Of a stretch of 54,040 nt of DNA, positions 5,039-41,571 are shown piece by piece. The position numbers were made by a program, and so were the translations under genes. The stretch is from NCBI GenBank assembly GCA_043810635.1, contig JBDRNY010000021.1, positions 1 through 54,040 on the forward strand, in the 5' to 3' direction. How positions within the stretch are numbered: position 1 is the first letter of the stretch; each line of letters begins with the position of its first letter. This DNA comes from Candidatus Micrarchaeota archaeon. Lineage in GTDB: Archaea; Micrarchaeota; Micrarchaeia; Anstonellales; Anstonellaceae. Below the pieces are notes generated by a model. It was given only the letters and a program-made list of their open reading frames with translations, did not search any database and was not told the origin of the DNA.

Positions 5039-5056
5039 TTGGGAGGTTATGGCAGG

Positions 5057-6208: not shown

Positions 6209-6210
6209 AT

Positions 6211-13208: not shown

Positions 13209-13216
13209 ATATATAT
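13209..13216 (+). repeat. (AT)4 dinucleotide repeat causing frameshift 2 in paralog 5
   Basis: Sequence reads c-atatatat-ac. Removing one AT unit gives cat ata tac aaa gtg tat gat = HIYKVYD, which matches the next tandem repeat. Confidence 0.85.
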
Positions 13217-15191
13217 ACAAAGTGTATGATAAAGATGGGGATTTGCAGTTTGAACAAACAGAGCCATTTGAGATGGTATTTCCGCCTCCACCGTCCATAA
13301 CAACTTCATATTCATTCACATGCACACCTGAAATATGCAAAAATAAAATTACTGTGGAAGTAATTGCAATCGGGAACGGGCTGGCTTCAGAATCTGCATT
13401 TATTACTATTGATTTGGATGATGGTGCACCAAGATATCTTATGCCCCCGCTAATCAGGATAGAGCCAGATGATCCTGAATGGGGGGAGGATTTTATTATT
13501 TATACAACACAGCCAGATGAGAGCCTGCCAGCACTTGAGCACAAATATAAAATTTATGAAATTGACGGGGAGGAGCAGGAGGAAATCCTGAGCTTTACCC
13601 TCCCTGTGCAAAACAGGGAAACCCAATATAATTTTGAGTGCGGAAGCGAGTATTGCGACAATCCAATTCTGGTTACAGTGAAAGCAGCAGATGGTTCTGA
13701 TGAATCAGAAGCAGGAAATTTGCTTATACAATTCAGGCCGGTTGCCCTGCCCCCGCCAGTGCTTGTTTCCGCAACTCCGCAGGATGTTTTTGAGCAGCTG
13801 GATTGGGATGGCATTGCCCTGATATTTTCTGAAAGCGATGTTATAATAAATATTGAAGCCGGAGGAGGGGGGCAAACTCCTGATAAGTTTGTTTATGAGG
13901 GCACAATAAACGGGGAAGAAATGGGCATTATTTCAGGCACCAAGCCTGCATCAGAGCTGCAGCAGATGAGAATAAATTGCAATGATATTGGATGCAAATA
14001 CGGGGATTATATAAGGCTGGATATAACAGCATATGAAGGGGTGAGGCAGAGCAGGCCGCTCTCCCTCAACTTTTATGTATCAGACCCAGAGCAGGGCTTA
14101 ATGCCTGCAATTGGAAGAATTTGCAGCAAGAAAGAAATCAACTCACTTATAGTTTATTCTGTAGCAGGGTTTGTTGCAATGATATTTATAATTGCAATAA
14201 CATTTATGCTGGGAAATGCACTCCATCAGCCGAGGTTTTTAGACTGGTCAAAAATGGAAGCAATGCAGATTGTTTTTTCATTTGTATTGTTTGCCTTGAT
14301 ATTTATTGCACTCCAGCTGCAATGCAACCTGAATATTGTTGAATTTAAAAACTGGCTTGGGGGGCAGGGAGGGCTTGCCCTTCGCGGAACTACAATGATG
14401 GAAGCTGCACAAGATTATGTTGAATGGTCGGTGGGGCAAACACACCTTACCCTGGTTATGCTGAGAAGGGATTTGGGGGCAATAAACATGCGCGCAACCT
14501 ATTCAAACTATGACAACCAGGGCTTGGGGCTTGGAATGAACGGATTTAGCTATGCGCCCTATTCAGGAGATTATACCACCACAGGCGCAATGGGAATGTT
14601 AATGAACCTGAATACTGGATTTATGCTGACAAATCTTTTTGAATATTTTTCGCTTGCATTTTTTGCATCCAGCACAGGGTTTCTTATATTTCTGGTGCCT
14701 ATTGGATTTTTGCTGCGCTCGGTGCCTTTCCTGCGCGGGCTTGGAGGGGGATTAGTTGCAATAGGAGTCGGGTTTTATATCATGTACCCGATTATTTTTG
14801 CCATGCTTGCAATCGCGCTTCCGCCGGCAATAACCAATGATGCAAGCAAAGTGTTTGATGACAGGTATTGCGGGGGAAAAGACTGCGGAACAGGAAACAA
14901 TTTGCAGCTGAAAATTGACAAGGTGCAGGCTGATGAGGAGAGCATTACAGGAAAAAACATATTTTCATATTTTGACGACCATCCAAACCCAAAAATAAAT
15001 ACCAACCCTAATGATGAAGAGTTTCCAAGGGTTGATTTGGCCACATTCTTCAGGCTTACTGCAATCAATTTTATAAGAACATTTTTCCTTCCAACTGTCG
15101 GCCTTGTTATAACAATTTCAATCATACGAGATATGTCAGGACTGCTGGGCGATGAAGTTGATGCGACAAAGCTTGTGCAAATGGTGTGATA

Positions 15192-16364
15192 ATGGAAAAT
15201 AGAAAATTAAATGCACGAAAAATCTGGCTTGCGCTTGCCTTTCTTATTGCAATCAATGCAATTATGCCCGCACTAAATGCTGCTGATGAAAGCACATGGG
15301 GAAGTGAGGAAGATGCTGCAAGAGTTAAATATTTCTTCCTGCAGCCGGGGGAGGAAGGGGCAGCGCAGGATACACGGCACCAGTGGAGAGGCATTGCAAT
15401 GCTTGCAATTGCAGTATGCATTTTTGCAAATATACTGGTTTATATGACAGGAAGGGCATTGGGAATGCAAAAAGTGGAAAGGTTTGCAATATCTGAATTT
15501 TACCAGGTAAGCGCATCTGCGATTATGATATTTTTGCTTATTTTGGTAGCAGAGGAAGGGTTTAATTTCCTTGCCCATGAAAGCGTGGGAATACTTCCGG
15601 AAGGCACAACTACAAAATGCGCAGGCGAGGAAAAAAATGTTTGGGAAGAGGGGCCGTTTGGAATAATGAGGTGCAAAATACAGGAAAAAATAATATATTT
15701 GGAAAAGCTTTATGACCAGGCATATGAAAACAACAAAAGAGTAGAATGGAAAACAGCTACATGCATTTATTTCATGAGCCTGCCGGTGTATTGCGGAGAC
15801 TGGAATATTGGCTGGCATGCAACTGTTGAAAAATCGCATTATATTGCGCACAAGATTGCGCCTATTGCAATCAATCTGCATGGCCAGTATATTTTTGCAA
15901 CCTATCTTGAGCAAAATATGCTTGCAGTGTTTTTGCCGCTCGGGCTTATTCTAAGGATTTTTCCGCCATTCAGGGGGATTGGGGCAATGCTTATAGCAAC
16001 ATCAATCGGCTTTTATATAGTGTTTCCAGTGTCATATATTTTGCTTGACCCAAGCACTATAAGGCCTGACCCATCGCAGGTTGTTCCCTATGTTGATGAT
16101 GCAAATGTGGGCCAGTGCTATAGAAGCTTTTCAGGCATGATAACCCTTCTTACCAAGCCACCAGCGCAGGAGCAGGGGGCAGGCGGGGTGCAGCAATTGC
16201 CAGACCCGGATAGGATTGGGAAGGAGATTGCGAACCTGCAGGTTGAGGCATTTTTCTATCCCTTGGCAGCGCTTGCTGCCACAATGTTTTTCATAACAAC
16301 TGCAGCCCCCATACTCGGAGGAGATTCTGGAATGATAATGCATTTCTTGGCAAAGGTTATATGA
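15192..16364 (+). CDS. Polytopic membrane protein, TM-core paralog 6
   Basis: ATG 15192 lies 2 nt after the stop of paralog 5 (the track starts at GTG 15186). It has a signal-like N-terminus (LAFLIAINAIMPALNAADE), the hairpin LVYMTGRALGMQKVERFAISEFYQVSASAIMIFLLI, the core FLPLGLILRIFPPFRGIGAMLIATSIGFYIVFP and the tail APILGGDSGMIMHFLAKVI. Confidence 0.85.
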   Translation: MENRKLNARKIWLALAFLIAINAIMPALNAADESTWGSEEDAARVKYFFLQPGEEGAAQDTRHQWRGIAMLAIAVCIFANILVYMTGRALGMQKVERFAISEFYQVSASAIMIFLLILVAEEGFNFLAHESVGILPEGTTTKCAGEEKNVWEEGPFGIMRCKIQEKIIYLEKLYDQAYENNKRVEWKTATCIYFMSLPVYCGDWNIGWHATVEKSHYIAHKIAPIAINLHGQYIFATYLEQNMLAVFLPLGLILRIFPPFRGIGAMLIATSIGFYIVFPVSYILLDPSTIRPDPSQVVPYVDDANVGQCYRSFSGMITLLTKPPAQEQGAGGVQQLPDPDRIGKEIANLQVEAFFYPLAALAATMFFITTAAPILGGDSGMIMHFLAKVI

Positions 16365-16368
16365 GAGG

Positions 16369-19300
16369 ATGAAAATGGAAGATATAAAAAAAACTGCACT
16401 TTTGTTTGCGATTTTGGCAGCAATTGCCCTCTTTGCATCAGGATGCACCCAACAGCCGAATACAAACCTATCATATGCAGACTGCTGCCAATATTCAGAA
16501 AAAAATTATGAATGCTTTATGGTGATGGAGGGGGATGAGCCGAAAAGAGATGGTGACGGAAGAATCGAGCTTAGTGAATGCGGCATATGCGAAAGATGGG
16601 ATGATTCAAGCGGGCTGTTGTATGACAATGCAGGAAATATTTTGCTGGATAAAAAGAAAATTCCTATCACCCCGGCAGAATGTGAAAATAATTGCAATTT
16701 CCAAAAAGCTGACTGCACAAACGAGGATGAGAGCGGAAACTGCTACCTTGTTGAAAACAACAAAATAAACCAAGATGTTGTTGTTGCCCCGATTTGCAGG
16801 GTTGCACCCGGAGACCCCTGCACCCAAAACGAATGCTCTGCAATGATATGCTCTGAGCAAAAACCAAGAGTAAGGCTTGCAACAAATGAGCAGGGGCTGA
16901 ATGCAATGGCTGAGAAGGGGAGCAGTGCAAGCAAGGATGTGGATGATGTTGGCGGGCTGAAGGGGATGATGTGCACATTTGACAAAATGAGCTCAAAAAC
17001 AACAAGGTTGCTAAAAAAAGGAGACGGATTTATAAATTCATTCAGGCTTGGAATTTCCGGGAGCTTTTCAGATTATGAGCAGGCGCGCTTTTACTTCCCG
17101 CCTTCGGATTTTTATTGCGGAAAGCTGGGGGAAAGGGCTGTTGTTGACAGGTTTGTAAATTATTTGGATGATGGAAAGGTATTGCCTCCGTTTAGGGGCG
17201 GAAATTTTATGGCAAAATTGCATTACTGCCAAAGGGATGGTGAAAAAGATGCAGATGATTCATATTGGTATTGCACAAATCCGCCCGAGCTGAGCGGCCT
17301 GAAATTTATTGTAGGGGAATATGCTTCAGATGAGGCTGCAGAATATGCTTGCGCAAATATTTGCAATTATTGGCAGGGAAAAACCTGCGAAAACAACAAC
17401 GAGCTTTATACTATTGATATTAATATTGCGCCACCGGGGGCAGATGAAAATATAGAAAAATTTGTAGATTATACAAGATATTATAGTTTGCTTGAAAAAG
17501 CTTATCCGATTCCGGACGCCCTTGATTATTACCATATAATGCCGCCCCTTGATGCAGGTGAGGAAGATATGGCAGCGGAGCTGCTAAAGCCGGGACCTGC
17601 AGGGGCACGGGTGTTTGAATGCACTGAAAGCACAGATTGCATGTCAAACATATGCAAAAAAGATGAGTTTAGCACAACCGCATGCTTTGACAAAAATACT
17701 GGCGAGAGGCTGGATTGCGGATGCAGGCTTATTTATGACTGTGATTTTGCATATTTGTGCGATCAGCTATATAAGAAAAGAACTGTTAAGTGGACAACAT
17801 GCTATAAATTAAGAAATGAATTGTGTGCATACAGGATTGGAGAGGGATATGTGCTTGCATGCGAATATAATGCAGTAGATAACAGAAAAGAATTTAGTGC
17901 ATTAAACGATTTTGGAGTGATTACGCTTGAAGATGACAAAATAAGGACTGGAGAATTTTGGGAGTTTGAGCAAACAAAAGACGAGCCACTGGAAATAGGG
18001 ATAATGCAAATGCTTGGGAAAAAAGAAAGGTGTTACAACAAAAACCTTGACCCGCAATGGAAAGACAAAAAAGAAGGAAGATGTCCCTCTGGGTATGAAA
18101 AAGAATTTTATTACAAATGGGTGAATGACCCTACAAGCGTTCGGGGATGTGTTGATGCGGAAGGAGGTTTTCGTGCATGCATAGAAGAGCATTGGGGCGC
18201 CTCGTTTGCGCCGGTTCCGTATGAGCAAATAATAATTGACACATACGGAGGGGGGACAAGCTTTTACACGGCCCCAGATATTACTTTTGAACAATTAAAG
18301 CAAAGAATGCCTGTTATTGATGCGTGTGAAATGCAATATGGAACAGATGTTATAGAATCAGAAACAAATGAAGGGACGCTGGAGGAAGCGCTTAAAAATT
18401 CAGGAGGGTATCCGCAGGATGAGAATGCAAAAAGAATAAACAAAATGTGGCGGCTTAATCGGCAAGGGGAAAATTCAGGGTTTGGAAAATGCATGCGCTC
18501 TGGAAAAGGGGATTATGACATGCCGTCGGTATTGGAATACGGAGTTTGCGAGCCTTGCGGCACCACTCTTTCATTGGCGTTTCAGAAAATTACAACTCAT
18601 GACAAAAGCTATTGCCCAACAACATGCAACACAGTATTTCCAATGTGCTTGTGTGATGATGAAGTGGAAGAACCCAGGGCGCACTTTATTTATTTGCATG
18701 AAACAGCTCCAAAAACATATCCAGAGTATGGATTTATTTCAAGCAAAATAGACGAATACATGGCTGCAGGCATAATGCCTGTGCTTGATATAAAAGAGTA
18801 TGAAATAACCACATCAGCACTTGGTTTGGACAAATATACTAGGTATTGGGATGCAGATGGAGAGGGGAGAGAATGGTGCGAGAATATGGGGGGGGAATGG
18901 GAAGAAGAGGGAAACTTTCTTGATTATTCAGACAGCTGCACCTGGGAAATTGGGCTTGGCGGAGATTATTTTCTAAAAGGATTGGCTGACGGGCGCTCTG
19001 CATCTATTCTTATAGTGGATGATTTGGAAGGGGTGGAAACCAAGCAGAGAATAAGCAATGTAAGATCACAGTGCCCGGATTGCATGCTTGCGCTTGAAAT
19101 AAAGCTTGAGGAGGGAGAGGTGCAGAAGGCAATGGAAGACGGCACCTACCCGCAAAGAGTTTCAGATATAATAAGAGAGTTTAGCGAAGAAAAGGAATAT
19201 GATGAATACAGATTTTCAGATCCTTGGGGAGGGATGCCAAAGCCGCCGCAGATAGCAGATGTGGATATTTTAGTGCTTAATATGAATTTGGAAGGTGCAA

Positions 19301-20229
19301 GCTTTGGAAATAAAGAAAAGCTGGATAAGGAAGTGAAAAACCTTGTAAATATGTCAAGAAAAATTTTGCAGCATGTTGGCTGGAAAACATTGTGGAAGTT
19401 TGAGGGGAATGAAAAAGCATACAAACACCAGGAATTTTACAAAACGCTTTGGGCAAACGAATATGAGATGAGTTTGTATGGTGTTGTGGGGATATTGCTT
19501 CCTCCAATGGATGAGCTTATTTACGGAAAGGACATAAAAGATGCAGAGAGTGCATTTTGCGCAGCAGAAGAAGGCTCTACAGAATTTTTGCATCCGGAAA
19601 ATGTGGTTGCATTGCAGCAGATTTATCCAAGGGAAGGATGCCAGTGCAACCCATGCACTGAAACCGAAATTAAACTTGACCAGTGCAAAGAGAGCGCAAG
19701 ACTTTGCCTTGACGGAATGCCATGCAAAAGTTATAATGAAGTGAGCGGGGAGTGGGATTTGCCCCCCTCAGGAAAATGCCAGGATGCATGTATTAGGGCA
19801 GATGGAGATTATATGAAAAAGTGCGAAGATGTGCAATTAGAAGTCACGTGCAGGGCTATGAGGTCAGATAATGAGTTGTTAAGATTATGCAGTGGGGCGC
19901 AGGATTTGCCTGAGTGCGATATTATTACATTTAAGATTAGCGAGCTTGTTACAAATCCGTTCTTAAGCCCGTACAGGGCAGAATTTATTGGGGGCCTACC
20001 TGCAAAAGAGCGCTGCTATATAGAGGAGGAAGATGCAAAATTCAGCTACCGCTTGCAAATATCTGCAAGGTCGTTTTCAGAACCCATGATATATCCAACT
20101 TATGGGGCAAACACAACAGAGTGCTCAAGGCTTAAGCTTACAGATGAGGATGTTGACACCTGCAACTGGGATTATAGAATTCCGTTGCCCATAAGAAAGA
20201 CTGCATGGACATGCACAATTTCAGGATAA
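16369..20229 (+). CDS. Giant Cys-rich secreted lipoprotein (1286 aa) of unknown function, last gene of the cluster
   Basis: It has a lipobox-like signal (LFAILAAIALFASGC). There are dozens of Cys throughout and no further TM segment. The start lies 4 nt after the stop of paralog 6. No recognisable domain. Confidence 0.85.
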   Translation: MKMEDIKKTALLFAILAAIALFASGCTQQPNTNLSYADCCQYSEKNYECFMVMEGDEPKRDGDGRIELSECGICERWDDSSGLLYDNAGNILLDKKKIPITPAECENNCNFQKADCTNEDESGNCYLVENNKINQDVVVAPICRVAPGDPCTQNECSAMICSEQKPRVRLATNEQGLNAMAEKGSSASKDVDDVGGLKGMMCTFDKMSSKTTRLLKKGDGFINSFRLGISGSFSDYEQARFYFPPSDFYCGKLGERAVVDRFVNYLDDGKVLPPFRGGNFMAKLHYCQRDGEKDADDSYWYCTNPPELSGLKFIVGEYASDEAAEYACANICNYWQGKTCENNNELYTIDINIAPPGADENIEKFVDYTRYYSLLEKAYPIPDALDYYHIMPPLDAGEEDMAAELLKPGPAGARVFECTESTDCMSNICKKDEFSTTACFDKNTGERLDCGCRLIYDCDFAYLCDQLYKKRTVKWTTCYKLRNELCAYRIGEGYVLACEYNAVDNRKEFSALNDFGVITLEDDKIRTGEFWEFEQTKDEPLEIGIMQMLGKKERCYNKNLDPQWKDKKEGRCPSGYEKEFYYKWVNDPTSVRGCVDAEGGFRACIEEHWGASFAPVPYEQIIIDTYGGGTSFYTAPDITFEQLKQRMPVIDACEMQYGTDVIESETNEGTLEEALKNSGGYPQDENAKRINKMWRLNRQGENSGFGKCMRSGKGDYDMPSVLEYGVCEPCGTTLSLAFQKITTHDKSYCPTTCNTVFPMCLCDDEVEEPRAHFIYLHETAPKTYPEYGFISSKIDEYMAAGIMPVLDIKEYEITTSALGLDKYTRYWDADGEGREWCENMGGEWEEEGNFLDYSDSCTWEIGLGGDYFLKGLADGRSASILIVDDLEGVETKQRISNVRSQCPDCMLALEIKLEEGEVQKAMEDGTYPQRVSDIIREFSEEKEYDEYRFSDPWGGMPKPPQIADVDILVLNMNLEGASFGNKEKLDKEVKNLVNMSRKILQHVGWKTLWKFEGNEKAYKHQEFYKTLWANEYEMSLYGVVGILLPPMDELIYGKDIKDAESAFCAAEEGSTEFLHPENVVALQQIYPREGCQCNPCTETEIKLDQCKESARLCLDGMPCKSYNEVSGEWDLPPSGKCQDACIRADGDYMKKCEDVQLEVTCRAMRSDNELLRLCSGAQDLPECDIITFKISELVTNPFLSPYRAEFIGGLPAKERCYIEEEDAKFSYRLQISARSFSEPMIYPTYGANTTECSRLKLTDEDVDTCNWDYRIPLPIRKTAWTCTISG

Positions 20230-27130: not shown

Positions 27131-28096
27131 ATGACAATTGTAGAAGAGTTGCGCTCAAAAATTTCAAAAGAAGAGTTTGAAACAGGAGTGCGGGAGAAAT
27201 TGGAGGAATTTCACCACCTTATTACAAAAGAAAGCGCGGAATATTTGCTTGCATTGGAAAAAATAGGGGCAAAAGCAAAATTAGAAAATATTGAATCTGC
27301 AAAACTGAAAGGAATTCCGTGCATTTTGAATGCAAGGGTGGAAAGGGTGTTTTTGCCCCAAATATTTGAAAAAGGGGGGGAGGAATCCCGAACTCAGAGG
27401 ATGCAAATTTCTGACCAGACAGGGGGGGTTATAGTTGCATGCTATGATGAGGGAAGCAAAAAAATTGACAAAGAAATTGTTGCGGGGGATTTGGCTGAAA
27501 TAGGGCCCGTGAGGTTTCGGGGGGAGGAATTTCATCTTCTTCCAAAAGGAAATGTGAGAAGGATTCAGAAAGGGGCAAGGGGAAAGCTGAAGGATGAAAA
27601 ATTGCAGGTTGGGAATTTTGAAGGAAAAGTTGTGCAATTTCAGGGGGATTTTCCATATAAAAAAGGGCAGGCAAGGCTGGTTGGAGAGGGGGAAACTGCA
27701 TTGATGAGCTCTTTTGAATTGGAAGACGGGAGCGGGAAAAAAAGAGTGGTGGTTTGGGACAGCCCCGGCATGAAAAATATTTTGAAAAAAGGTATGGAAG
27801 TTGAAATTGAAAACGGAAACAGAAGAAACGGGGAAGTGCATATTGGAAAAGGGGGAAGACTGGTGTTTGACAGGAAGGAGGAGAAAAGGCCTGAAATTGA
27901 GAGAATTGAAATTAATGAGGGGGAAGTAAAAGTTTTTGCTAAAGAAAAAACAATTGTATTTGAAAATTTGGAAGAAGCGTGCTTTAAATTCGGCATTGGA
28001 AAAGTGCCTGAAGGAATTAAGGAAAAAACCGCGCTTGAATTAAAGAAAAATGATTGGGTTGGAAAGCCGTTGCCTTTAAAATGGGAAAAAAATTAA
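27131..28096 (+). CDS. OB-fold protein, RPA-like ssDNA-binding candidate (two OB-like repeats)
   Basis: Two segments fit an OB pattern: ILNARVERVF...MQISDQTGGVIVACYDE...GDLAEI, and FEGKVVQF...FELEDGSGKKRVVVWDS...KKGMEVEIENG. This was judged by eye only. Confidence 0.4.
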   Translation: MTIVEELRSKISKEEFETGVREKLEEFHHLITKESAEYLLALEKIGAKAKLENIESAKLKGIPCILNARVERVFLPQIFEKGGEESRTQRMQISDQTGGVIVACYDEGSKKIDKEIVAGDLAEIGPVRFRGEEFHLLPKGNVRRIQKGARGKLKDEKLQVGNFEGKVVQFQGDFPYKKGQARLVGEGETALMSSFELEDGSGKKRVVVWDSPGMKNILKKGMEVEIENGNRRNGEVHIGKGGRLVFDRKEEKRPEIERIEINEGEVKVFAKEKTIVFENLEEACFKFGIGKVPEGIKEKTALELKKNDWVGKPLPLKWEKN

Positions 28097-28680
28097 GTTC
28101 TTGAGCCGGGCAGCCATGTGTAAACTGTCATATTTCCAACATATTGCGCCTGCTCGCTCCCTATCTCGCGCTCAACATAAACAACTCTTCTTACTTTTGC
28201 TATTTCTGCATTGGCAGGTGGTTCGTTTCCAAATTCAACATTTATGGCTTGGGGGAAAGGAGGATATTTGAATGTGTCAGGGTCTGCAATTGCAAGCCGC
28301 ATAACAACATAATATTCTGCAGAAGTTGCCATCAACACCCTTGAGTCATCATAATTTTGTCCGGGTATAAGATGCACGCTTGCAGCTTCTATATTTGGCC
28401 GCGGTACCCTTTGATAAACCAAATTTCCTGGAAATGAATTTTCCACTCCAAACCCTGCTCTCATTGCGCCTGAAGGGTTGATATACCAATTAGAAGGATT
28501 GCCAACTCCAAGCATTAAATCAGAAATTCGGTGAGCTTCGCTTTGCAAATAATCTGTATCTTCATTCATCTGGGAGCGGAGCGCAAACCAGTGGTTCATT
28601 AAAATAGAAAGGGCCATGATGAAAATTACAGAGGCAAGGATTGCATCAAATGAAAAATATTGCCCGCGCAAAAAATTCAT
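28093..28680 (-). CDS. Type IV pilin-like protein (class III signal peptide), 195 aa
   Basis: The N-terminus is MNFLRG/QYFSFDAILASVIFIMALSIL. The start overlaps the upstream stop (ATGA). Confidence 0.7.
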   Translation of the reverse strand: MNFLRGQYFSFDAILASVIFIMALSILMNHWFALRSQMNEDTDYLQSEAHRISDLMLGVGNPSNWYINPSGAMRAGFGVENSFPGNLVYQRVPRPNIEAASVHLIPGQNYDDSRVLMATSAEYYVVMRLAIADPDTFKYPPFPQAINVEFGNEPPANAEIAKVRRVVYVEREIGSEQAQYVGNMTVYTWLPGSRT

Positions 28681-29192
28681 ATGTCCACCTCAATTCTTGT
28701 GCCATCCTCATCTGTAATATAATTAAATGAAATTGCCCCGCTGCTTGAATACACTTCAACTACAGTATAATGCACTCCTCCGGCATTATATTCATGAGAA
28801 TATCCGCCGCCCGGCAAAGTGAAATTTCCAAATCCTATTGGGTATGCAAAGCTCATTTCCTCCCCGTCTCTGCCTTCCACATCAGCATAAATCCATCCCG
28901 AGCTTACAAACCTCAATCTATAAGGCTCTCCATTCACTTCTTCCTGAATATTGAATTTTGCAGAAAAGCCCGGGCCTCCGTCCAATACGAATTTTGCATA
29001 ATCCCCTACTTGGTTTACTGTTGCCCTTGCAAGCATAAATTCCCTTTTTTGTATGTCTGCATTAAAGCTGGAAATAATGAAAAGCGTGAAAAATACGAAC
29101 ATAAGCATGAAAAATGCAATATAAATCATAACTTCCATTGACACTTGCGCCTTTTTGCAACCCCGCCATTTTTTTTGCAATTCAATTTCCAT
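28677..29192 (-). CDS. Type IV pilin-like protein (class III signal peptide), 171 aa
   Basis: The N-terminus is ...RGCKKA/QVSMEVMIYIAFFMLMFVFFTLFII, which fits the QxSxE pattern of archaeal class III signal peptides. Confidence 0.7.
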   Translation of the reverse strand: MEIELQKKWRGCKKAQVSMEVMIYIAFFMLMFVFFTLFIISSFNADIQKREFMLARATVNQVGDYAKFVLDGGPGFSAKFNIQEEVNGEPYRLRFVSSGWIYADVEGRDGEEMSFAYPIGFGNFTLPGGGYSHEYNAGGVHYTVVEVYSSSGAISFNYITDEDGTRIEVDI

Positions 29193-29275
29193 CCCAATAA
29201 CCTTTTTTTCTATTCCGCCCGCAATACAAATTTTTCAATATTTTCATCCGCCCGGTTTTTTGCAATTCAATTTCC
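29163..29275 (-). repeat. 28-nt direct repeat (25/28 identical) at 29163-29190 and 29248-29275
   Basis: On the + strand the copies read ccgccaTTTTTTTTGCAATTCAATTTCC and ccgcccggTTTTTTGCAATTCAATTTCC. Copy 1 covers codons 2-10 of the 171-aa pilin-like gene. Copy 2 lies in the 109-nt gap upstream of it. Confidence 0.8.
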
Positions 29276-29301
29276 GCTTTTCAATTCCAAACCTCTTTTT
29301 T

Positions 29302-29871
29302 TCAATAATCCACTCCCGGCACGAACCTTACAATATTTACATATTGCCCCTCGTTTTTTACAATAAGCACCTGTGAGCCTGGGTTGAGGGTGCCGTCAGC
29401 ACGCTCAAGATAATTTAAATTATGGGCAACATGGCCTGCAGGAATATTTTTCACAGGCGCAGGGGAAATTACAATAACTCTTACTTCCCCGCCTGTAGAA
29501 TCATCAAGAGTAAGCACAATATCCCTTCCTTTTGTTTTTATTTCATCAGGGCAGATGAGCTTTCCATTAGGGTCGATTGAGCAGATTATTTCATTTCCAC
29601 TCAAAGAAACATCCATAATTCCGTCAGGGTAATTTACCAGAATAGTTCTTCTTGCCCCATACCCTTCATACCAGACTTCCCCTGCAGTGTCTGATATATG
29701 CTGTGCCATTGCCTTTGCCTGCATTTGGTTTAATGTTTGTATTTTCAAAGTGGTGGAAGAATAGAAAATCAATACAAGGGGGATTATGAATACCAGTGCA
29801 ATTCCCAATATCATTAAAGTTTCAACTGCCGCCTGCCCGAATTTTGCTTTTGTTTTATTAAACAAATTCAT
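29302..29871 (-). CDS. Type IV pilin-like protein (class III signal peptide), 189 aa
   Basis: The N-terminus is MNLFNKTKAKFG/QAAVETLMILGIALVFIIPLVLIF, with Glu at +5. Confidence 0.75.
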   Translation of the reverse strand: MNLFNKTKAKFGQAAVETLMILGIALVFIIPLVLIFYSSTTLKIQTLNQMQAKAMAQHISDTAGEVWYEGYGARRTILVNYPDGIMDVSLSGNEIICSIDPNGKLICPDEIKTKGRDIVLTLDDSTGGEVRVIVISPAPVKNIPAGHVAHNLNYLERADGTLNPGSQVLIVKNEGQYVNIVRFVPGVDY

Positions 29872-29879
29872 AATACCAC

Positions 29880-31886
29880 TTATCTGCAGCTTGAACCGTC
29901 GTTTACAAGAGATTCAGTAAATTCTAACTCTTCCAAATTATACCTGTTAGATGGAACTTCACCAGGATTGGCATCATCCGGCAGGGTTGTTAATGCAAAC
30001 CTCCCAACTCCCACCTGCCTTATGTATTTGTCTTCCATGCACATCCAATAAGATTTGCATCCGGGCAGCCCTTTTTCAAAAACTCCGGAGCATTTGGGCG
30101 TGCTGACACCCTCTTGATAAAAATGATAATCCATGCGAGACCTTCGCTCATTATTTACGCCTCTAGAATCTGCAGTGTTTGCATTCGGGTCACGCCATCC
30201 GCCAGCCCATGCGCCAACATTAAATGATTCAATTCCATATTCAAGAAAGGGGGAGGAGTAAGGAGTTATGCCGTCATAGCTTTTCAGCACAGTAAGCCTT
30301 TGCAAATAAGAGGGGCCGTATTCGGATTTTACATAGTATCCGCAAATTGCCATATCCCTCGGGCCAGTCATATCCCATAATTTGCTGTCTGCAGAAGTAC
30401 TACTTGCTTCCTTCATCCTAAGCGCAGCAAGCCTGTCTGCCTTGCTTGTAGCACTATTATATTCTTCCATTATTTCACTGTAATTTACATCATTTTCAAT
30501 AAGTGCTTCAGAAAGCCCAAGATGATAATTTTTTTCAATATCTGGAAGCCGGCCTGACAGACAAATATAAGGTATGTCAGTGTTTTTTGGAATTGTTTCC
30601 ACAACATAATGCGGCTCTTTAATATAAGTATCAGGATCTGCAAGGACACTGCAGCCCCTTCCCCTAAGCTCGTAATATCGTATTTTGTAAAGGCAGCCTT
30701 TTTGTGTTATTTGATATAAAAAGCAATTAGGGGCAATATTATTGATAGCAAATCCATCATCAAAGCCTGCAGGTTGATGGAGTAATATTATCCCCCCAAA
30801 ATATTTGGATTGTTCAACTGCAGTTTCCACGTTTGTTGTTGCATAAATATACTGGTTTATCCTGGAGATGTTAAATCTGTAATTTAAATCTGGATTGTTT
30901 TTTACAAATTCAAAATATTCTTTTGTTTCTCCATATGAAACAACAGGCCCGAAAAACCAGCCCATCCCTTCTATTGCATCAGGCGCTGCAGCCGCAATTT
31001 CTGCCCTTGCATCAGCAGGAACTTCATATTCTTGCGAATGATAAACATTTTTGTGAGGAAGGGCATAAAGATCAGTAATTGTCCCGATTGAAATTCCTCC
31101 GGGAGAGAGTTTGTATTTCAAATCATTTCTTAAAAGCGAGGGGTCTGTGAATCCGTTTATATCCACTGAAACATTTGCTTCCAATAATTTGTTTATTTCC
31201 ACCCTTCCGTCATCATCATAAAATTTTACAGGCACTTTCAAATAAACCCCGACAGTCCATTCATCCCTGTGGCTGAAATTATAATCCTGCACTTCGCCCC
31301 ATTCAATATTATAGCCAGACATTTTTGCGGCTTTTGCGGTTTCTTCAAAATAATATGAAAGCAGGTATTTTTTTTCTTCACCTGAAAATGTGAGGTTTTT
31401 CTGCACCCAGACTATGCCCATTCCTTCAGGTATTGCATAATTATAGAAAAATTTGTTTTGATATGAATTAGAAGAGTCGGTTATATACGCGCTGGTATTT
31501 CCATATACCATTAATTCATACATGGTTTTGTTTACATAATAAGTTCCGTCAGGGTCGCGAACTCGGTTTGGCTCATTCTCCTCTTCCACGGAATAAGCAT
31601 TTCTATATATCCCCATAATTTCTCCTTGGGGATGCTCTTCAATCGTGCCTGAGAGGTTGTCAAGGCAGTAAATCATTGATGCATTTACAAACCTGGAAAA
31701 TGATTTGTTATCTATAAGGGAAAGGGAGGTGCGCATTGCATCAATCCTGAAATTTTCCGCGGCGCGCTTTTCCTCAATCTGCTGAGTCTGGGCCCATAGT
31801 TGAACTGAAATAAATATAAATGAAATTAAAATTAAGGCAAGCACCGTGAAAATAAATCCTTTTTTGTTTTGAATAATTGAATTCAT
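29880..31886 (-). CDS. Large (about 668 aa) protein with a pilin-type N-terminus; candidate tip or adhesin subunit
   Basis: MNSIIQNKKG/FIFTVLALILISFIFISV is followed by a ~640-aa soluble domain. ATG 31886 lies 2 nt after the upstream stop (the track start 31898 would overlap it). Confidence 0.7.
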   Translation of the reverse strand: MNSIIQNKKGFIFTVLALILISFIFISVQLWAQTQQIEEKRAAENFRIDAMRTSLSLIDNKSFSRFVNASMIYCLDNLSGTIEEHPQGEIMGIYRNAYSVEEENEPNRVRDPDGTYYVNKTMYELMVYGNTSAYITDSSNSYQNKFFYNYAIPEGMGIVWVQKNLTFSGEEKKYLLSYYFEETAKAAKMSGYNIEWGEVQDYNFSHRDEWTVGVYLKVPVKFYDDDGRVEINKLLEANVSVDINGFTDPSLLRNDLKYKLSPGGISIGTITDLYALPHKNVYHSQEYEVPADARAEIAAAAPDAIEGMGWFFGPVVSYGETKEYFEFVKNNPDLNYRFNISRINQYIYATTNVETAVEQSKYFGGIILLHQPAGFDDGFAINNIAPNCFLYQITQKGCLYKIRYYELRGRGCSVLADPDTYIKEPHYVVETIPKNTDIPYICLSGRLPDIEKNYHLGLSEALIENDVNYSEIMEEYNSATSKADRLAALRMKEASSTSADSKLWDMTGPRDMAICGYYVKSEYGPSYLQRLTVLKSYDGITPYSSPFLEYGIESFNVGAWAGGWRDPNANTADSRGVNNERRSRMDYHFYQEGVSTPKCSGVFEKGLPGCKSYWMCMEDKYIRQVGVGRFALTTLPDDANPGEVPSNRYNLEELEFTESLVNDGSSCR

Positions 31887-31888
31887 AT

Positions 31889-32548
31889 TTAACCCCATAC
31901 TGTAAGCCTCAATAATCCTACGCTAAAATCCCCGTGTATAAAGGAGCTTGCTGTCTGTATATCGCACGGCACTTTTGTGCATTCGGAAGGGGGGGTGGTG
32001 TATACCGGCGTCCCTGCGGTTCTGGATTCATACGGCATATAGCCTTTGCACACTACATTGCAATTCATTGAATCCCCGCCGATTACGGGGTCTTTGTATA
32101 CTGCAATTAAAAGGGTGGAAGAGGCGGCAACACGGTGGAAAGGCATATTGCAAAAACGCATTCCATTGTCATACCTGCTCGGGCAGTCAGATGATGCATT
32201 ATGTATCGGATGCCACTGCCTTGTTCCAAAATCATAATAATCATAAGAATAGGAATATGGATCTGGCACCAAATCATTTGTAATTTGAATCAACTTCGCA
32301 GAATGGGAGGGGTCAATATTTCCTTCTAATGCGCCTTGTACTGCCTCTCCAAACAAATCTTTTCCCCCATCATATCTTACTTCATATAATGAGTTCAAAC
32401 TATCTTGGGCAATATAATTTGCCTGCTCAAGCGCGCGGTAATAGCCCACAGGGGAGGATGAAACCACCACCAGGGATTGGACGGCAATAAGAATAAGCGA
32501 AAATGCTACGAATGAATCTAAAGAGAAAGCAAACCCCCGCTTTTCCAT
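31889..32548 (-). CDS. Type IV pilin-like protein (class III signal peptide), 219 aa
   Basis: The N-terminus is MEKRG/FAFSLDSFVAFSLILIAVQSLVVV. It is the first gene of the minus-strand pilin operon. Confidence 0.7.
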   Translation of the reverse strand: MEKRGFAFSLDSFVAFSLILIAVQSLVVVSSSPVGYYRALEQANYIAQDSLNSLYEVRYDGGKDLFGEAVQGALEGNIDPSHSAKLIQITNDLVPDPYSYSYDYYDFGTRQWHPIHNASSDCPSRYDNGMRFCNMPFHRVAASSTLLIAVYKDPVIGGDSMNCNVVCKGYMPYESRTAGTPVYTTPPSECTKVPCDIQTASSFIHGDFSVGLLRLTVWG

Positions 32549-32607
32549 ATGGCAAAAATAGCAGGCAAGAGTTTAAAATGTGAGGGAAGGCAACTAATAT
32601 AGGTGGT
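32549..32607. promoter_or_regulatory. Candidate bidirectional promoter between the divergent pilin operons
   Basis: The spacer is 59-62 nt and contains TTTAAAA (32572-32578). That motif lies about 25 nt from the minus-strand ATG (32548) and about 35 nt from the plus-strand ATG (32611). GGTGGTG precedes the plus-strand start. Confidence 0.35.
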
Positions 32608-32610
32608 GTG

Positions 32611-32862
32611 ATGAGAGGGCAGCTTTCTGCGGAGATGCTTATTATTCTTGCAATTATTTTGGGGCTTGTTTTTATTGTATTTACCCAGATGACAAAAACC
32701 GTGAAAGACACTGGGGAAGCGGTTGATGAAAGGACAGGGAAATTGATTAATGCGACAGCATTAAGCGCTGAAGAAATGGCATGCGTAAAAGATGCTGATT
32801 GCGAGAAAGTAGATGATGCGTGGGAATGCGATGTGAGCAAGGGGCATTGCACAGAAAAGTAG
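32611..32862 (+). CDS. Short type IV pilin-like protein (83 aa), candidate major pilin
   Basis: MRG/QLSAEMLIILAIILGLVFIVF is a close match to the QxSxExxxL class III signal motif. The small Cys-containing C-terminal domain reads CVKDADCEKVDDAWECDVSKGHC. Confidence 0.75.
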   Translation: MRGQLSAEMLIILAIILGLVFIVFTQMTKTVKDTGEAVDERTGKLINATALSAEEMACVKDADCEKVDDAWECDVSKGHCTEK

Positions 32863-32868
32863 ATTTTG

Positions 32869-33273
32869 ATGAAAGGGCAGCTGACTCTTGAAATGCTTGT
32901 TGTGGGCGCGCTTGCGCTTGCTCTATTGCTAATTGCGGCAAGTGCGGTATCAAAAATTCAATATGCAGAAGCCATGATGTTTGAAAGAAAAATATTGCAG
33001 GAAGAATTGCATTATATGGCAGAATATGCTGATGAAATTTGCATTTTGGGCGCTGGCAATGCGCGCACTGTGCCTCTTTCAAATACTCCTTTGAATATTG
33101 ATGCAAGTGAAAATAAGAAAATGCTTATTGTAAAATTAGGGGAGTGGCATGCGGTTGAGGAAACTGCTTGTGAAATTAAGATAATTGAGAATGTTCCTTT
33201 TCAAAATACTGCATATTTGTGGTATGAAGAAAATGAAGATAAAGTAATTCTTTCTTCTGAGCCGAAAACCTGA
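32869..33273 (+). CDS. Type IV pilin-like protein, 134 aa
   Basis: The N-terminus is MKG/QLTLEMLVVGALALALLLIAASAV, with Glu at +5. Confidence 0.75.
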   Translation: MKGQLTLEMLVVGALALALLLIAASAVSKIQYAEAMMFERKILQEELHYMAEYADEICILGAGNARTVPLSNTPLNIDASENKKMLIVKLGEWHAVEETACEIKIIENVPFQNTAYLWYEENEDKVILSSEPKT

Positions 33274-33333
33274 GCCGAACCAAATCCACAACCCTTTTAT
33301 ACAATACAACGGTTGGAATTTACGGTGTTGTTT

Positions 33334-35560
33334 ATGGATATGGGCGCAAAAACAATATTGTTTGCAATTTCAATTTTTTCATTAATTTTAATGGCAGGCT
33401 GTGTTGAGCCGCCTCCGCCTAACGGGGGAGGGCAGAATATTACTACCCAGCCAGGGGGAGGGCAGATTATCGTGCCCCCTGATTTGAGCGGTCAAACAGA
33501 AGAATTGAAAAAATTTGAAAATATGGATGAAATGCAGAAATGGCTGAAGGAAAATACCAAACAAGACAGGTATTATTATGATGATGTGATGTATGAATCA
33601 GCTCCTGGAATGGATATTCTTGGCATGGCTACAAGCGGTGCGGCGTCTAAAGCAGCGCCTGTTGCGGGCGTGGATTATTCTGCAACAAATGTACAGGTAG
33701 TTGGTGTGGATGAAGCTGATTTTGTAAAAACAGACGGAAATTATATTTACATTATACACAACAATGAGCTGATTATTGTTGATGCAACAAACGGAGGGGA
33801 AAATTCTGAAGTGATATCAAGGACTGAAATTGTTGATGAAGATGCGAGCTATTATTCCCCCCAAGCAGAGCAGATGTTTATCTATGGAGAGAGGCTTGTG
33901 ATTTTTGTTGACAAGCCGGATGAGGCAATTACATTTCCGAGGTATGATATTACGCCCAGGGAAACTTATGTTGAAAACACGGTTGCTATTATATATGATA
34001 TAAGCAACAGGGAGGCTCCTGAAATAAATGAAGTTATGACAATTTCAGGAAGCTATTACCAGTCAAGGATGATTGGGGACAAGGTGTATGTGATAACAAG
34101 GGAAGATGTAAATTATTACTCACCCGTACGCGAGCCTATGATATATTATGATGTGATAGAAATTCTTCCGCCTGTATATTATTTTGACCACCCTGAAGAT
34201 GATTATGTTTTCCACACAATTGCGTCAATAGATGTTGATGATGAGGAAATTGTTGATGCCCAGACATTTTTGATGGGCTATGGAAACACAATGATGATGT
34301 CAACGGAAAATATGTATATTGCATACCAAAAATATGACCAGTGGTACTGCTATTGGTGCTATGAGGAGAAAAGGTATGACAGGGAAAGGTTTTTTGAAGT
34401 GGTTGTGCCGCTTCTGCCTGACAACGTGGCAAACAAAATTTATGAAATAGATGGGAAAAATGTTTCAGAGCAGGAAAAATGGAGGCAGATATCCGCCAAA
34501 TTGGAAGATTTCTTTGAACCAATACTTACTGATGAGGAAACATATATGGATAAGAAATATTACGAGGAATTGATGGAAAAAATAGAAGATGCTTTGGCAG
34601 AATATGATGCAAACAAAAAGCTTGATGAAACCGCAACCATTATACACAAATTCGGGGTGGACAACGGGAAAATTACATACAAAGCAAAAGGTGCGGTGCA
34701 CGGATATTTGCTAAACCAGTTTTCAATGGATGAATTTGAGGGGAATTTGAGGGTGGCAACAACAGTGGATATTTGGACAACCTACAAAAATTTGGAATAC
34801 AACAATGTGTATGTATTGAATGAGGAAATGGAAACAATCGGCTCTCTTGAAAGGATTGCGCCTGACGAGGAAATCTACTCTGCGAGGTTTATGGGCAAAA
34901 AGCTTTATTTGGTAACATTCAAGCAAATAGACCCGTTCTTTGTAATAGATTTGTCAAATCCGGAGGAACCGGAAATACTTGGCGCATTGAAAATACCGGG
35001 TTATAGTGATTATTTGCATCCATATGATGAAAATACTATAATAGGGGTTGGAAAAGAAACAGAAGAAAATATTTGGGGGGGGAGTAAGCACAGGAGGGGT
35101 GAAAATAGCCCTCTTTGACGTGAGCAACCCCGAGAAGCCGAAAGAAATTGACAAAATAGAAATTGGGAAGGGGGGTTCGGACAGTGCGGTGCTGCATGAC
35201 CATAAGGCATTTTTGCTTGACAAAAGAAACAGCATAATGGTAATTCCGGTGAAAGAAGTGGAAGTGGAGGAAGGGCTTTTCAGGGACAAAACAACTGTAT
35301 TGGACGGAGCATATGCATTCAGGATCGACAAGGATGGATTTGAGGAAATAGGAGTGGTAAGGCATTCCAAGAAAAAAGATTATTATGACAGCTGGAGAAG
35401 CCAGGCAACTGTTATGAGAAGCATGTATATCGGCGGGGATTTGTACACAATTTCGACGCAATATATAAAGGCAAATAAATTAGAAGATGGGTTGCCTTCC
35501 TTAAACAGCATAGAATTGCCTGAAGAAGAGGAGGATGACTGGTGGAATTGGTTTGAATAA
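33334..35560 (+). pseudogene. Secreted beta-propeller-domain lipoprotein (COG4880-like), interrupted by a frameshift at a G8 tract
   Basis: It has a lipobox-like LILMAGC, and VQVVGVDEADFVKTDGNYIYII is typical of the secreted beta-propeller family. ORFs 33313-35118 and 35048-35560 join as ...EENIWGGVSTGGVKIALFDVSNPEKP if G8 (35075-35082) is read as G7. Confidence 0.7.
35075..35082 (+). repeat. Poly-G tract (G8) at the frameshift site of the beta-propeller gene
   Basis: The sequence reads atttGGGGGGGGagt. The two reading frames overlap exactly here. Confidence 0.9.
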
Positions 35561-39406: not shown

Positions 39407-40905
39407 TGGCAAAATTACATGAGAAAATATTGGATATTGCGATTCAGCGGGGATTTCTCATTCCTTCAGCCGAAATTTACAACTCTCCTGCAGGATTTTA
39501 TGATTACGGGCCTGTGGGGGCGGCTGTTAAAAGAAAAATGCAAAATTTGTGGAGAGAATTGTTTGTTTTAAGGCAGGGGTATTTGGAAATTGAAACCAGC
39601 ATAATACTTCCGCATAATGTGTTTGTTGCTTCAGGCCATGCTGCAAATTTCAAGGATTTTATGATTGAATGCAAAAAAGAAAAGAAAAAATTTCGGGCAG
39701 ACAAATTGCTTGAAGAAAAAACAGGAAAAAGTTGGGAAGGAAAGAGTGCCGGGGAAATTGAGAAAGGGATAAAAGAGCATAAAATAAAATGCCCGGATTG
39801 TGAGGAAGAGCTGGCAGATGTTGCTTCTTTTAATTTGATGTTCGGCACAAGGATAGGCAGTGGAAAAGATGATAATGCAAATTTAAGGCCTGAAACAGCG
39901 CAGGGAATATTTCTTGCATTTAAAAGAATATTTGCGCAATACGGGGCAAATCTGCCTGTTGCAATAGCCCAGATTGGAAAATCTTTTAGAAATGAAATTT
40001 CCCCCCGCCAGGGATTGGTAAGGATGAGGGAGTTTACGCAAATGGAATTAGAATATTTTTTTAACCCTAAAAATGACAAAATGGAAGAATTTGAAAAATT
40101 GAAGGAAAAAAAGGTGAGGATAAAGCTTCCTGCAAAGAAAAACGAGGAAGCGAAAATTGAAGAAATAACATTGCAGGAAGGGGTGGAAAAAAAATATTTT
40201 CCAAATGAAATTATGGCAGTAATGATATATTGGCAGCAGGAATATTATGAAAAAATCGGAATTGACAAGAATAAATTTCATTTCAGGATTATGCCCCCAG
40301 AAGAGTTGCCCCATTATTCCAAGGGAAATGTTGATTTGGAAGTGGAGACAAGCTATGGGGTGATTGAAACAGTCGGCACTGCTTATAGGACAGATTTTGA
40401 TTTATCCTCCCATCAAAAGCATTCTAAACAGGAATTGGCTGTGCATGTGCAGGGGGAGGGAAAAATAATCCCCCATGTAATTGAGCCTTCATTTGGAGTG
40501 GACAGGCCGTTTTATTGCATTTTAGAGCATTGCTTTAGGGAGAAGAGCAAGGAAAAGGAGTGGGAATGGTTTGCTCTTCCGCCGTCTATTGCGCCTTATG
40601 TTGCAGGAATATTTCCATTGCAAAAAAAAGATGGATTGCCTGAAATTGCGGAAAAAATTGTGAAAATGCTTCGTGAGGAAGGGATAGATGTTTATTATGT
40701 GAGAACAGGTTCGATAGGGAAGAGATATGCGCGCGCTGATGAAATCGGGGTGCCTTATTGCATTACAATAGATTATGAGAGCAAGGAAAAAAATGATGTT
40801 ACAATTAGGTATCGGGATGACGGGGGGCAGGAAAGAATTGCAATAAGCGAGCTGGCGGGGAAAATAAGAGAATTGGAAAAAGAGGGGAAAACTTCGCTAA
40901 AATGA
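39406..40905 (+). CDS. glyS: Glycine--tRNA ligase (archaeal/eukaryotic-type class II)
   Basis: It contains MAKLHEKILDIAIQRGFLIPSAEIYNSPAGFYDYGPVGAAVKRKMQNLWRE, FRNEISPRQGLVRMREFTQMELEYF and EPSFGVDRPFY. A GGAGG lies 8 nt before ATG 39406. Confidence 0.93.
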   Translation: MAKLHEKILDIAIQRGFLIPSAEIYNSPAGFYDYGPVGAAVKRKMQNLWRELFVLRQGYLEIETSIILPHNVFVASGHAANFKDFMIECKKEKKKFRADKLLEEKTGKSWEGKSAGEIEKGIKEHKIKCPDCEEELADVASFNLMFGTRIGSGKDDNANLRPETAQGIFLAFKRIFAQYGANLPVAIAQIGKSFRNEISPRQGLVRMREFTQMELEYFFNPKNDKMEEFEKLKEKKVRIKLPAKKNEEAKIEEITLQEGVEKKYFPNEIMAVMIYWQQEYYEKIGIDKNKFHFRIMPPEELPHYSKGNVDLEVETSYGVIETVGTAYRTDFDLSSHQKHSKQELAVHVQGEGKIIPHVIEPSFGVDRPFYCILEHCFREKSKEKEWEWFALPPSIAPYVAGIFPLQKKDGLPEIAEKIVKMLREEGIDVYYVRTGSIGKRYARADEIGVPYCITIDYESKEKNDVTIRYRDDGGQERIAISELAGKIRELEKEGKTSLK

Positions 40906-41571
40906 TTCTGGCTCCTTTGGCTGGGAAGAAGGAACTTCCTTAGGTTTTTCATCATTTTTTGAAGAATAGATTTTCACATAAAGCGCTACCCCGGAAAGCG
41001 CTATTGCATATATGGGCCACAAAAGCCAGCCAAAAGAATCTTTGCTTTGCCTGGAACTAAGAAATATGGAAAAAAGTTCTGAAAATGAATATGTTCCCTT
41101 ATCTTTTTCCTTGAACCACGAAACCCAAGCTTGTGCAGTAGTATTCTGCAGGATGCTACGAGTTTGGAAAAGTTCGGATGGGATTCCTCCTATGTCGTGT
41201 ATCATAAAAGTTAGGGGAGAGTCTTTTACAATTGGTCCAGTTTCAACAAGCAGGGACCTGTAATCAGAGTATATGCCATTACATGCTACACTCCATAAAT
41301 ACGTTTTCGCCTCCATGTTCTTGGAAGTAAAAACAATTTTTTCCCCGGCAGGCACCCGAAGCGGACCTAAGGGGGACGAGCCTTCAGACAGAAAAAAACA
41401 GGTTGCAGCATCAGACTCTTGGCTTTCTCCAGTATAAACAAATGAAAAATCAACGCTTGAGCTGTTGGTGCGCAGACCGTCAATTGGAGAGATAAGCTCG
41501 ACAGAGGCAACAGCAAAGATGAGTGGGAAAAGAAGAAATACCGCAACAAAAAATTTTATCCCGCAGGTCAT
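40897..41571 (-). CDS. Secreted protein with a C-terminal TM anchor, unknown function (224 aa)
   Basis: It has an N-terminal signal (FFVAVFLLFPLIFAVASV) and a C-terminal TM (WLLWPIYAIALSGVALYVKIY) followed by a charged tail. Confidence 0.6.
   Translation of the reverse strand: MTCGIKFFVAVFLLFPLIFAVASVELISPIDGLRTNSSSVDFSFVYTGESQESDAATCFFLSEGSSPLGPLRVPAGEKIVFTSKNMEAKTYLWSVACNGIYSDYRSLLVETGPIVKDSPLTFMIHDIGGIPSELFQTRSILQNTTAQAWVSWFKEKDKGTYSFSELFSIFLSSRQSKDSFGWLLWPIYAIALSGVALYVKIYSSKNDEKPKEVPSSQPKEPESF

Follow-up and report, generated by a model that had tools for sequence, protein, structure and literature searches.

The systems closest to the one described here, a 5.2-kb run of seven type IV pilin-like genes (28093–33273, designated G1 to G7) on a Micrarchaeota contig, are the archaeal type IV pili of the Epd or 'system 1' kind. 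The window, as the whole analysed stretch of 54,040 nucleotides (54 kb; JBDRNY010000021.1) is called in the following, covers one entire contig from the metagenome-assembled genome of a DPANN archaeon of the Micrarchaeota. The DUF361 pilins of Methanococcus maripaludis possess leaders of 5–13 residues ending in Gly, a conserved Gln at position +1, and Glu at +5; the major pilin has 74 amino acids (aa), the minor pilins have 130–299 aa, and the pilus genes are distributed over four or more chromosomal locales, those for the ATPase and platform being separate from those for the pilins (Nair et al., 2013; PMC3875500). The processing tetrads of the Epd pilins are RAQI, KGQV, KGQV, KGQL, and KGQI, and the peptidase EppA needs the Gln at +1 (Pohlschroder and Esquivel, 2015; PMC4371748). 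In clade-1 systems, stand-alone major pilins of ~70 aa occur together with five or more minor pilins and a large adhesin at the tip (Makarova et al., 2016; PMC4858521). A 2026 census found system-1 pilins in 1,990 DPANN genomes and reports that DPANN archaea have adjoining ATPase and platform genes and scattered pilins (PMC13705601). An ATPase, a platform, and a prepilin peptidase have been reported in other Micrarchaeota (PMC5498576, PMC13705601); Micrarchaeon Mia14 has two type IV pilus ATPase/TadC loci and one A24 peptidase (Golyshina et al., 2017; PMC5498576, supplementary table 2), including a CpaF-family ATPase and two TadC genes (PMC5498576, supplement).

When compared to these systems, the locus in the window probably encodes the subunit set of an Epd/'system 1' archaeal type IV pilus with pilins of the Class_IIIsignal/DUF361 type. 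It is composed of the following elements, a slash marking the predicted cleavage site from which residues are numbered:

28093–28680, minus strand: G1, 195-aa pilin-like protein, last in the five-gene operon; N-terminus LRG/QYFSFDAIL with Gln+1 and Asp+6.
28677–29192, minus strand: G2, 171-aa pilin-like protein, paralogue of G3; KKA/QVSMEVMIY with Gln+1 and Glu+5.
29193–29301, unstranded: G3–G2 gap of 109 nt, carrying a copy of the first ~28 nt of the G2 coding sequence as a direct repeat.
29302–29871, minus strand: G3, 189-aa pilin-like protein; KFG/QAAVETLMIL with Gln+1 and Glu+5 (KGQ[SA]S.E in its orthologues).
29880–31886, minus strand: G4, 668-aa pilin-like protein, candidate distal or adhesin subunit; KKG/FIFTVLALIL, without an acidic residue.
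31889–32548, minus strand: G5, 219-aa pilin-like protein with six Cys, first in the five-gene operon; KRG/FAFSLDSFVAF with Phe+1 and Asp+6.
32549–32610, unstranded: divergent intergenic region of ~62 nt with a TATA-like TTTAAAA (32572–32578) and a Shine-Dalgarno-like GGTGGTG before G6.
32611–32862, plus strand: G6, 83-aa candidate major pilin; MRG/QLSAEMLIIL with the leader M-R-G, Gln+1, and Glu+5.
32869–33273, plus strand: G7, 134-aa pilin-like protein coupled to G6; MKG/QLTLEMLVVG with Gln+1 and Glu+5.

All seven open reading frames (ORFs) and their N-termini agree exactly with an initial annotation of the window that had been made from the sequence alone, and re-measurement of the spacing likewise bore out the 4-nt ATGA overlap of G1 and G2 and the gaps of 109 nt (G3–G2), 8 nt (G3–G4), and 2 nt (G4–G5, with the 668-aa start of G4). 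G6 and G7 are 6 nt apart. Alternative start codons exist for G4 (ATG at 31898, yielding 672 aa) and G6 (GTG at 32608, yielding 84 aa), and the 62-nt region between G5 and G6 is predicted to act, probably, as a compact bidirectional promoter.

Each of the seven proteins begins with a short basic leader with Gly or Ala at −1, followed by an N-terminal hydrophobic helix of ~20 residues, and the same arrangement was found in their orthologues in 90 related loci. A Kyte-Doolittle scan with 19-residue windows detected exactly one strongly hydrophobic segment per protein, always N-terminal (mean 2.3–3.0), and no second transmembrane (TM)-like segment in any of the seven. A class III-type filter applied to the ORFs of at least 60 aa in the window retained 8 out of 216, six of which are located inside the 5.2-kb pilin-like stretch (the seventh pilin-like gene is slightly under the hydrophobicity cut-off), and the clustering of class III-type ORFs thus is not a matter of chance. 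In every orthologue group conservation is highest in the N-terminal segment, and in an alignment of 24 sequences from the four Q-type groups Gln+1 and Glu+5 were the sole invariant columns. G3 and G2 are paralogues according to hhalign (probability 97%, E 1.9e-10, 91 columns); G1, G5, and G4 are alike only in the N-terminal segment, a restriction that is usual among pilin sets. The N-termini, the lack of any other TM segment, the clustering, and the conservation together support the identification of all seven as type IV pilin-like proteins bearing class III signals, as had been proposed in the initial annotation.

The likeness to Epd pili begins at the processing sites. As in Epd pilins, the leaders end in Gly or Ala, four proteins (G2, G3, G6, and G7) combine Gln+1 with Glu+5, and the tetrads are near-identical ([KR]GQL and KAQV here). 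These four had been ascribed a QxSxE pattern; Glu+5 is indeed present in each, but the strict pattern is restricted to QVSME and QLSAE, the other two reading QAAVE and QLTLE. Glu+5 in combination with Gln+1 cannot be called specifically 'bacterial-like', as Gln+1/Glu+5 is the published signature of archaeal, EppA-processed DUF361/Class_IIIsignal pilins (PMC3875500; PMC4371748). The composition of the subunit set is also similar, with a tiny major pilin (74 aa in Epd, 75–86 aa in G6 and its relatives) accompanied by bigger minor pilins and a single large protein with a class III signal; the small G6 apart from the machinery, together with a five-gene operon including the 668-aa G4, matches what characterizes clade-1 systems (PMC4858521).

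Judged by sequence similarity, G6 belongs to the Class_IIIsignal/UPF0333 family of small pilins. Pfam family Class_IIIsignal (PF04021) was matched by G6 with 21.3 bits (E 2.5e-4; gathering cut-off 23.7 bits) and by 7 of the 24 Q-type orthologues at E ≤ 0.01 (best 3.4e-5). Some of the 99 members of the G6 family are named 'UPF0333 family' (JGI) or 'class III signal peptide-containing protein' (NCBI), and distant members carry precomputed PF04021 hits. In the eight aligned G6 orthologues the leader is M-[KR]-G, the motif GQxSAEMLI and four Cys near the C-terminus are invariant, and the proteins of its relatives have 75–86 aa; in G7, a motif ICILG.GN.R is conserved. The earlier proposal of the 83-aa protein as the prime candidate for the major pilin is supported, and a function as minor or tip subunits is likewise supported as the most likely role of the larger proteins.

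Several features distinguish the locus from the Epd system. Three of the seven proteins depart from Gln+1/Glu+5: G4 and G5 have Phe+1, and in G1 and G5 the acidic residue is Asp+6. These three also have globular domains without a match in any described family. The order of the five genes is strictly kept across a phylum, and no EppA gene is located in or near the operon. The leader of G6 comprises just three residues, and the protein ends in a four-Cys knot. Since PibD cleaves leaders down to three residues, FlaK needing five (PMC4187195), the G6 leader has the shortest length known to be cleaved. The joint occurrence of substrates with Gln+1 and with Phe+1 would imply either one peptidase of broad specificity or two peptidases.

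The conservation of the locus was traced in related genomes. In the neighbourhoods of G4 homologues, a module of two plus five genes in the same order was found in seven loci of six other assemblies, also where the flanking genes differ. The five-gene order G5-G4-G3-G2-G1 and the slot-specific motifs are conserved in the 90 loci, and the succession of slot types from G5 to G1 (F..D+6; large without acidic residue; Q..E+5; Q..E+5; QYFSFD) is kept in more distant members too. In 80 species loci the slot motifs are near-fixed (QYFSFDAI, QVATEF, QSSLEL, FLFTV, and FIFSLDAF). The complete five-gene chain was recovered in at least 31 of these loci and a gene with the G5-type motif in 64; tblastn detected G4 in 81 and G5 in 77 of the 90 loci. 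Twelve homologues of G4 share 36–45% identity, and those with organism names are all from Micrarchaeota. A G1 profile collected 648 family proteins at E ≤ 1e-3, all members with organism names being Micrarchaeota-type archaea. A scan for [KR]GQYFSxDA[IV] in one genome per species (185,579 species) matched 130 stretches, 126 of them true G1 relatives, and all 80 listed titles were of the Micrarchaeota type. G6 adjoins the five-gene operon in just 7 of 64 loci, which all belong to the subclade nearest the window; elsewhere in the Micrarchaeota the G6–G7 pair stands alone amid housekeeping genes, G6 always travelling with G7. The locus therefore is read as a composite of a five-gene operon conserved throughout the phylum and a conserved small-pilin unit of two genes, which happen to lie side by side in this lineage.

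The spacing of G3 and G2 is peculiar to the window, as relatives have ~10 nt at this position and lack the 109-nt gap. The direct repeat of ~28 nt (GGAAATTGAATTGCAAAAAA..GGCGG) occurs within 29163–29301 once in the gap and again at codons 2–10 of G2; because no such gap is present in relatives, the 5' end of G2 seems to have been duplicated locally.

Structure prediction and surface features complement this picture. Modelling of the N-terminal helices, which the initial annotation had suggested as a check, predicted a long helix in both proteins considered (residues 8–57 in G1 and 3–57 in G4). The AlphaFold model of G1 (predicted local distance difference test, pLDDT, 91; predicted template modelling score, pTM, 0.79; alignment of 63 sequences) places this helix immediately behind the predicted cleavage site; two short helices and four long beta-strands come next. 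This modelled order of elements is the one expected in a type IV pilin and is consistent with, though not decisive for, a pilin fold. In the model of G4 (pLDDT 61) the N-terminal helix is accompanied by a confident alpha/beta domain (116–260), the C-terminal half being poorly modelled. N-glycosylation sequons amount to 0.9 per 100 aa in the seven proteins vs. 0.23 in twelve cytoplasmic neighbours. G4 contains 10 of them vs. 5.3 expected from its composition (P ~0.03) and 10 Cys, and the Cys of G4, G5, and G6 occur in even, conserved numbers. Such a sequon density and even, conserved Cys are predicted hallmarks of extracellular proteins.

In the proposed pilus, all seven proteins would be inserted into the membrane via the N-terminal hydrophobic helix, and a prepilin (class III signal) peptidase would cut after the Gly or Ala at −1. 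A FlaI/CpaF-type ATPase and a TadC-type platform, presumably encoded elsewhere in the genome, could then lift the mature subunits from the membrane into a helical fibre whose core would consist of the packed N-terminal helices. G6 may provide the shaft, with G7 as its constant partner, and the products of G5-G4-G3-G2-G1 may be five low-abundance subunits that prime assembly and end at the tip. G4, the sole member without an acidic residue near +5 and rich in sequons and Cys, is the likely distal adhesin. A pilus of this kind would likely be used for attachment to surfaces or to the host cell. The motifs and their conservation, the operon structure, the phyletic distribution, the placement of G6 in the small-pilin family, and the pilin-like helix-plus-sheet prediction of G1 come from the data themselves, and from these we infer cleavage, polymerisation, the assignment of major, minor, and tip roles, and the biological role.

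A number of observations weigh against the assignment to the Epd-type pili. G6 alone among the seven reaches Class_IIIsignal, and does so below the gathering cut-off, and the orthologues of G1, G4, and G5 match no Pfam family. Foldseek searches against PDB retrieved no solved pilin for the G1 model (the best match, with E 0.009 and a TM-score of 0.22, was ribosomal uS3) and no neighbour for the G4 model, and profile searches of G6, G1, G3, G5, and G4 against PDB sequences returned nothing meaningful. Phe+1 in G4 and G5 is at odds with the Gln+1 requirement reported for EppA. Finally, an ATPase, platform, or peptidase gene was found within 10 kb of the operon in none of the 90 related loci.

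The same holds for the window itself, where none of the sizeable ORFs had a Pfam match to a T2SSE/FlaI ATPase, a T2SSF/TadC platform, or an A24 peptidase. The initial annotation had singled out the absence of assembly machinery nearby, which stands for the window by Pfam but is not unusual, being the norm in M. maripaludis and DPANN archaea (PMC3875500, PMC13705601). Both Glu+5 and the absence of nearby machinery are ordinary, because both have been published for Epd pili and DPANN genomes. Candidates for the missing components were inspected individually. The P-loop proteins encoded near the operon in the 90 loci were an ABC ATPase, an Mg-chelatase-like AAA+ protein, RFC, Cdc6, a TPR-AAA protein, and LeuRS, none of them a secretion ATPase, and a truncated ORF at the contig edge turned out to be NMD3. 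An unannotated 224-aa ORF (40897–41571), considered as a polytopic peptidase, was rejected since it has a signal peptide and a C-terminal TM anchor; it adjoins an Acyl_transf_3 gene and probably encodes a surface protein.

Other pilus systems resemble the locus in part. GspH-I-J-K of the type II secretion system (T2SS) and FimU-PilV-W-X of type IVa pili are encoded in compact operons for low-abundance pilin-like proteins, the largest of which lacks an acidic residue at +5 and is considered to cap the tip. The locus shares with them the compact multi-gene operon of pilin-like genes and a largest member (G4) without acidic +5, but the PDB profile and fold searches revealed no sequence or fold homology beyond the N-terminal segment. 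The resemblance to these bacterial minor-pilin/pseudopilin complexes is thus best described as a design analogy, not as family membership. With Tad/Flp pili the locus has in common a very small shaft subunit and a weak Pfam match of G6 to Flp1_like (E 0.008; 3 of 24 orthologues), but G6 differs by ending in a predicted disulfide knot; published Epd pilins also lack the Flp motif and Tyr+6 (PMC3875500). Mia14 ('Ca. Mancarchaeum acidiphilum'), a member of the same phylum, encodes seven class III-signal proteins in a run, with pilin annotations for five (MIA14_0252-0260), and thus resembles the present set by annotation. In contrast to the situation here and in the 90 related loci, where none is nearby, the run in Mia14 directly follows an ATPase and a TadC gene.

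Among the alternatives to an Epd-type pilus, the one that fares best is that the class III-signal proteins form a short pseudopilus or other surface assembly, comparable to the Sulfolobus bindosome or the T2SS pseudopilins, that anchors or pushes out surface proteins, with G4 as a displayed enzyme or binding protein. The five-gene set, with four smaller members and one large member without Glu+5, is like the bacterial sets, the small major-pilin gene is beside the operon in just the 7 of 64 loci, and archaeal class III signals are documented on non-pilus surface proteins (PMC13705601; PMC4187195). We nevertheless regard this explanation as unlikely, as G6, which is present across Micrarchaeota-type archaea, is predicted to share its family with the shaft pilin type proven for Epd pili, and as no domain of a secreted cargo or binding protein was detected in any of the seven proteins.

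A further alternative involves the envelope cluster of the window (725–20229), which contains an array of six paralogous polytopic membrane proteins (5039–16364; identified by a hidden Markov model, HMM, of the paralogues). According to this explanation, five pilin-like proteins, the array, and an ATPase of the HerA/VirB4 type would constitute one undescribed cell-contact machine without a canonical pilus motor. The pilin-like proteins might then be the external part of a conjugation-like conduit between Micrarchaeon and host, an idea to which we attach very little weight. Of 53 informative G1-centred loci, 20 have the array within ~12 kb of the operon, and the paralogue HMM places it within 10 kb in 15 of the 80 species loci; in at least four further window-type loci the last giant gene of the cluster is at the locus edge. 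On the G1 tree this proximity is spread over three lineages with three layouts, and in three loci (L085, L089, and L091) array and five-gene operon are arranged head-to-head only 54 nt apart, so that the array and the pilin-like genes there share a promoter region. The absence of a T2SSE ATPase near the operon in any locus also fits a machine with a different motor.

These observations have to be weighed against the 33 loci with full flanks in which no array is present within 10 kb, and against an array-centred metagenome scan, based on the orthologues of a single paralogue slot, in which the operon was near just 3 of 79 arrays (2 of 26 among loci of at least 12 kb). Two of the three layouts (B and C) are one rearrangement apart. 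CarS, the S49 peptidase, an RNA ligase, and PIN_5 are equally persistent neighbours of the operon although they are unrelated genes, and inherited synteny therefore explains much of the proximity of array and operon. The six paralogues were also considered as a divergent TadC platform, which was rejected (0 of 12 match PF00482 even at E ≤ 1, and their profile has no PDB relative); they thus lack T2SSF/TadC similarity. Next to the array, the recurring ATPase is of the HerA/VirB4/TraG type (DUF87, AAA_10, P-loop_TraG), not of the GspE/FlaI type, and we know of no system that assembles class III pilins with a motor of the DUF87/AAA_10/TraG type. A common cell-contact machine consequently appears quite improbable. 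The initial annotation had considered a functional link between a filament and the membrane apparatus of the cluster conceivable; proximity indeed recurs in some loci, but the synteny support is weak and limited and the usual motor is of the HerA/VirB4 type and not of the pilus type, which makes a link of the pilin-like operon to the envelope cluster highly doubtful.

That the seven proteins carry ordinary Sec signal peptides or signal anchors that stay uncleaved, whose prepilin likeness would be coincidental, is barely credible even though five of the seven lack a family match, as Gly or Ala at −1 is invariant, Gln or Phe at +1 and the acidic residue at +5/+6 lie inside the hydrophobic segment, the residues at −1, +1, and +5/+6 are kept over dozens of species despite ~25% identity in the rest of the protein, the hydrophobic stretch of ~20–22 residues runs into a 50-residue helix in the G1 model, unlike Sec h-regions, and relatives of G6 carry PF04021.

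The assignment to an Epd-type pilus bears on the lifestyle of the Micrarchaeota, which are tiny and host-dependent. For the attachment to their hosts the locus offers phylum-wide candidates, namely a small shaft pilin with a putative disulfide knot and a fixed set of five subunits including the 668-aa likely adhesin. The operon can be located in metagenomes by two simple markers, the N-terminal signatures QYFSFDA and FxFSLDAF. The gene set is real, well conserved, and of the Epd-like kind, and will not surprise a specialist. Epd-like type IV pili with scattered genes are an already described class of machine, for which the features flagged initially are textbook, and the value of the locus therefore lies in annotation and in the choice of targets for cultivated Micrarchaeota co-cultures and not in a new principle.

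The genomic surroundings of the locus are archaeal. Housekeeping genes around it in the window encode the proteasome alpha subunit, SBDS, the exosome proteins Rrp4/41/42, prefoldin, L7Ae, NDK, and a class II aminoacyl-tRNA synthetase. A gene for a 321-aa OB-fold (RPA-like) protein (27131–28096) converges on G1, the 3' ends overlapping by 4 nt, and is a conserved operon neighbour in 15 loci. In several distant Micrarchaeota lineages a gene for an S49/SppA-NfeD-type peptidase is located directly upstream of the five-gene operon (5278–6228 in L009, 5779–6705 in L010, 5413–6354 in L082, and 19203–20195 in L091), usually with CarS, the RNA ligase, and the PIN_5 RNase nearby. Directly downstream of the G1 homologue and on the same strand, eight species carry a gene for an AAA+ protein of ~470 aa that is Mg-chelatase (ChlI)-like and has the Walker A motif GPPGTGKS (L027, 10995–12410; L031, L032, L035, L039, L040, L073, and L080).

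As for the array, its head-to-head arrangement with the pilin-like genes spans 542–6882 in L085 and 3924–14910 in L091. In six metagenomic loci (L126, 8827–14376; L109, L118, L119, L164, and L166) two genes of ~270 aa and then a HerA/VirB4/TraG-type ATPase of ~505 aa come after the array on the same strand; no ATPase of this type is in view at the array of the window itself (5039–16364). The envelope cluster further contains an ORF of 103 aa (12241–12552) whose N-terminus (KKA/SYSFLLAIMIALLFSNFAFA) resembles a class III signal or a signal peptide. The ORF that follows (12386–13300) overlaps it in another frame, and the gene boundaries in this region may thus be mis-set. On the other side of the locus, the Beta_propel (PF09826) gene beside G7 (33313–35560) is split into two ORFs (33313–35118 and 35048–35560). 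Relatives have one intact gene of 758–762 aa, and the break in the window coincides with a run of eight G at ~35074–35081; the split could reflect either a sequencing error or slipped-strand (phase) variation.

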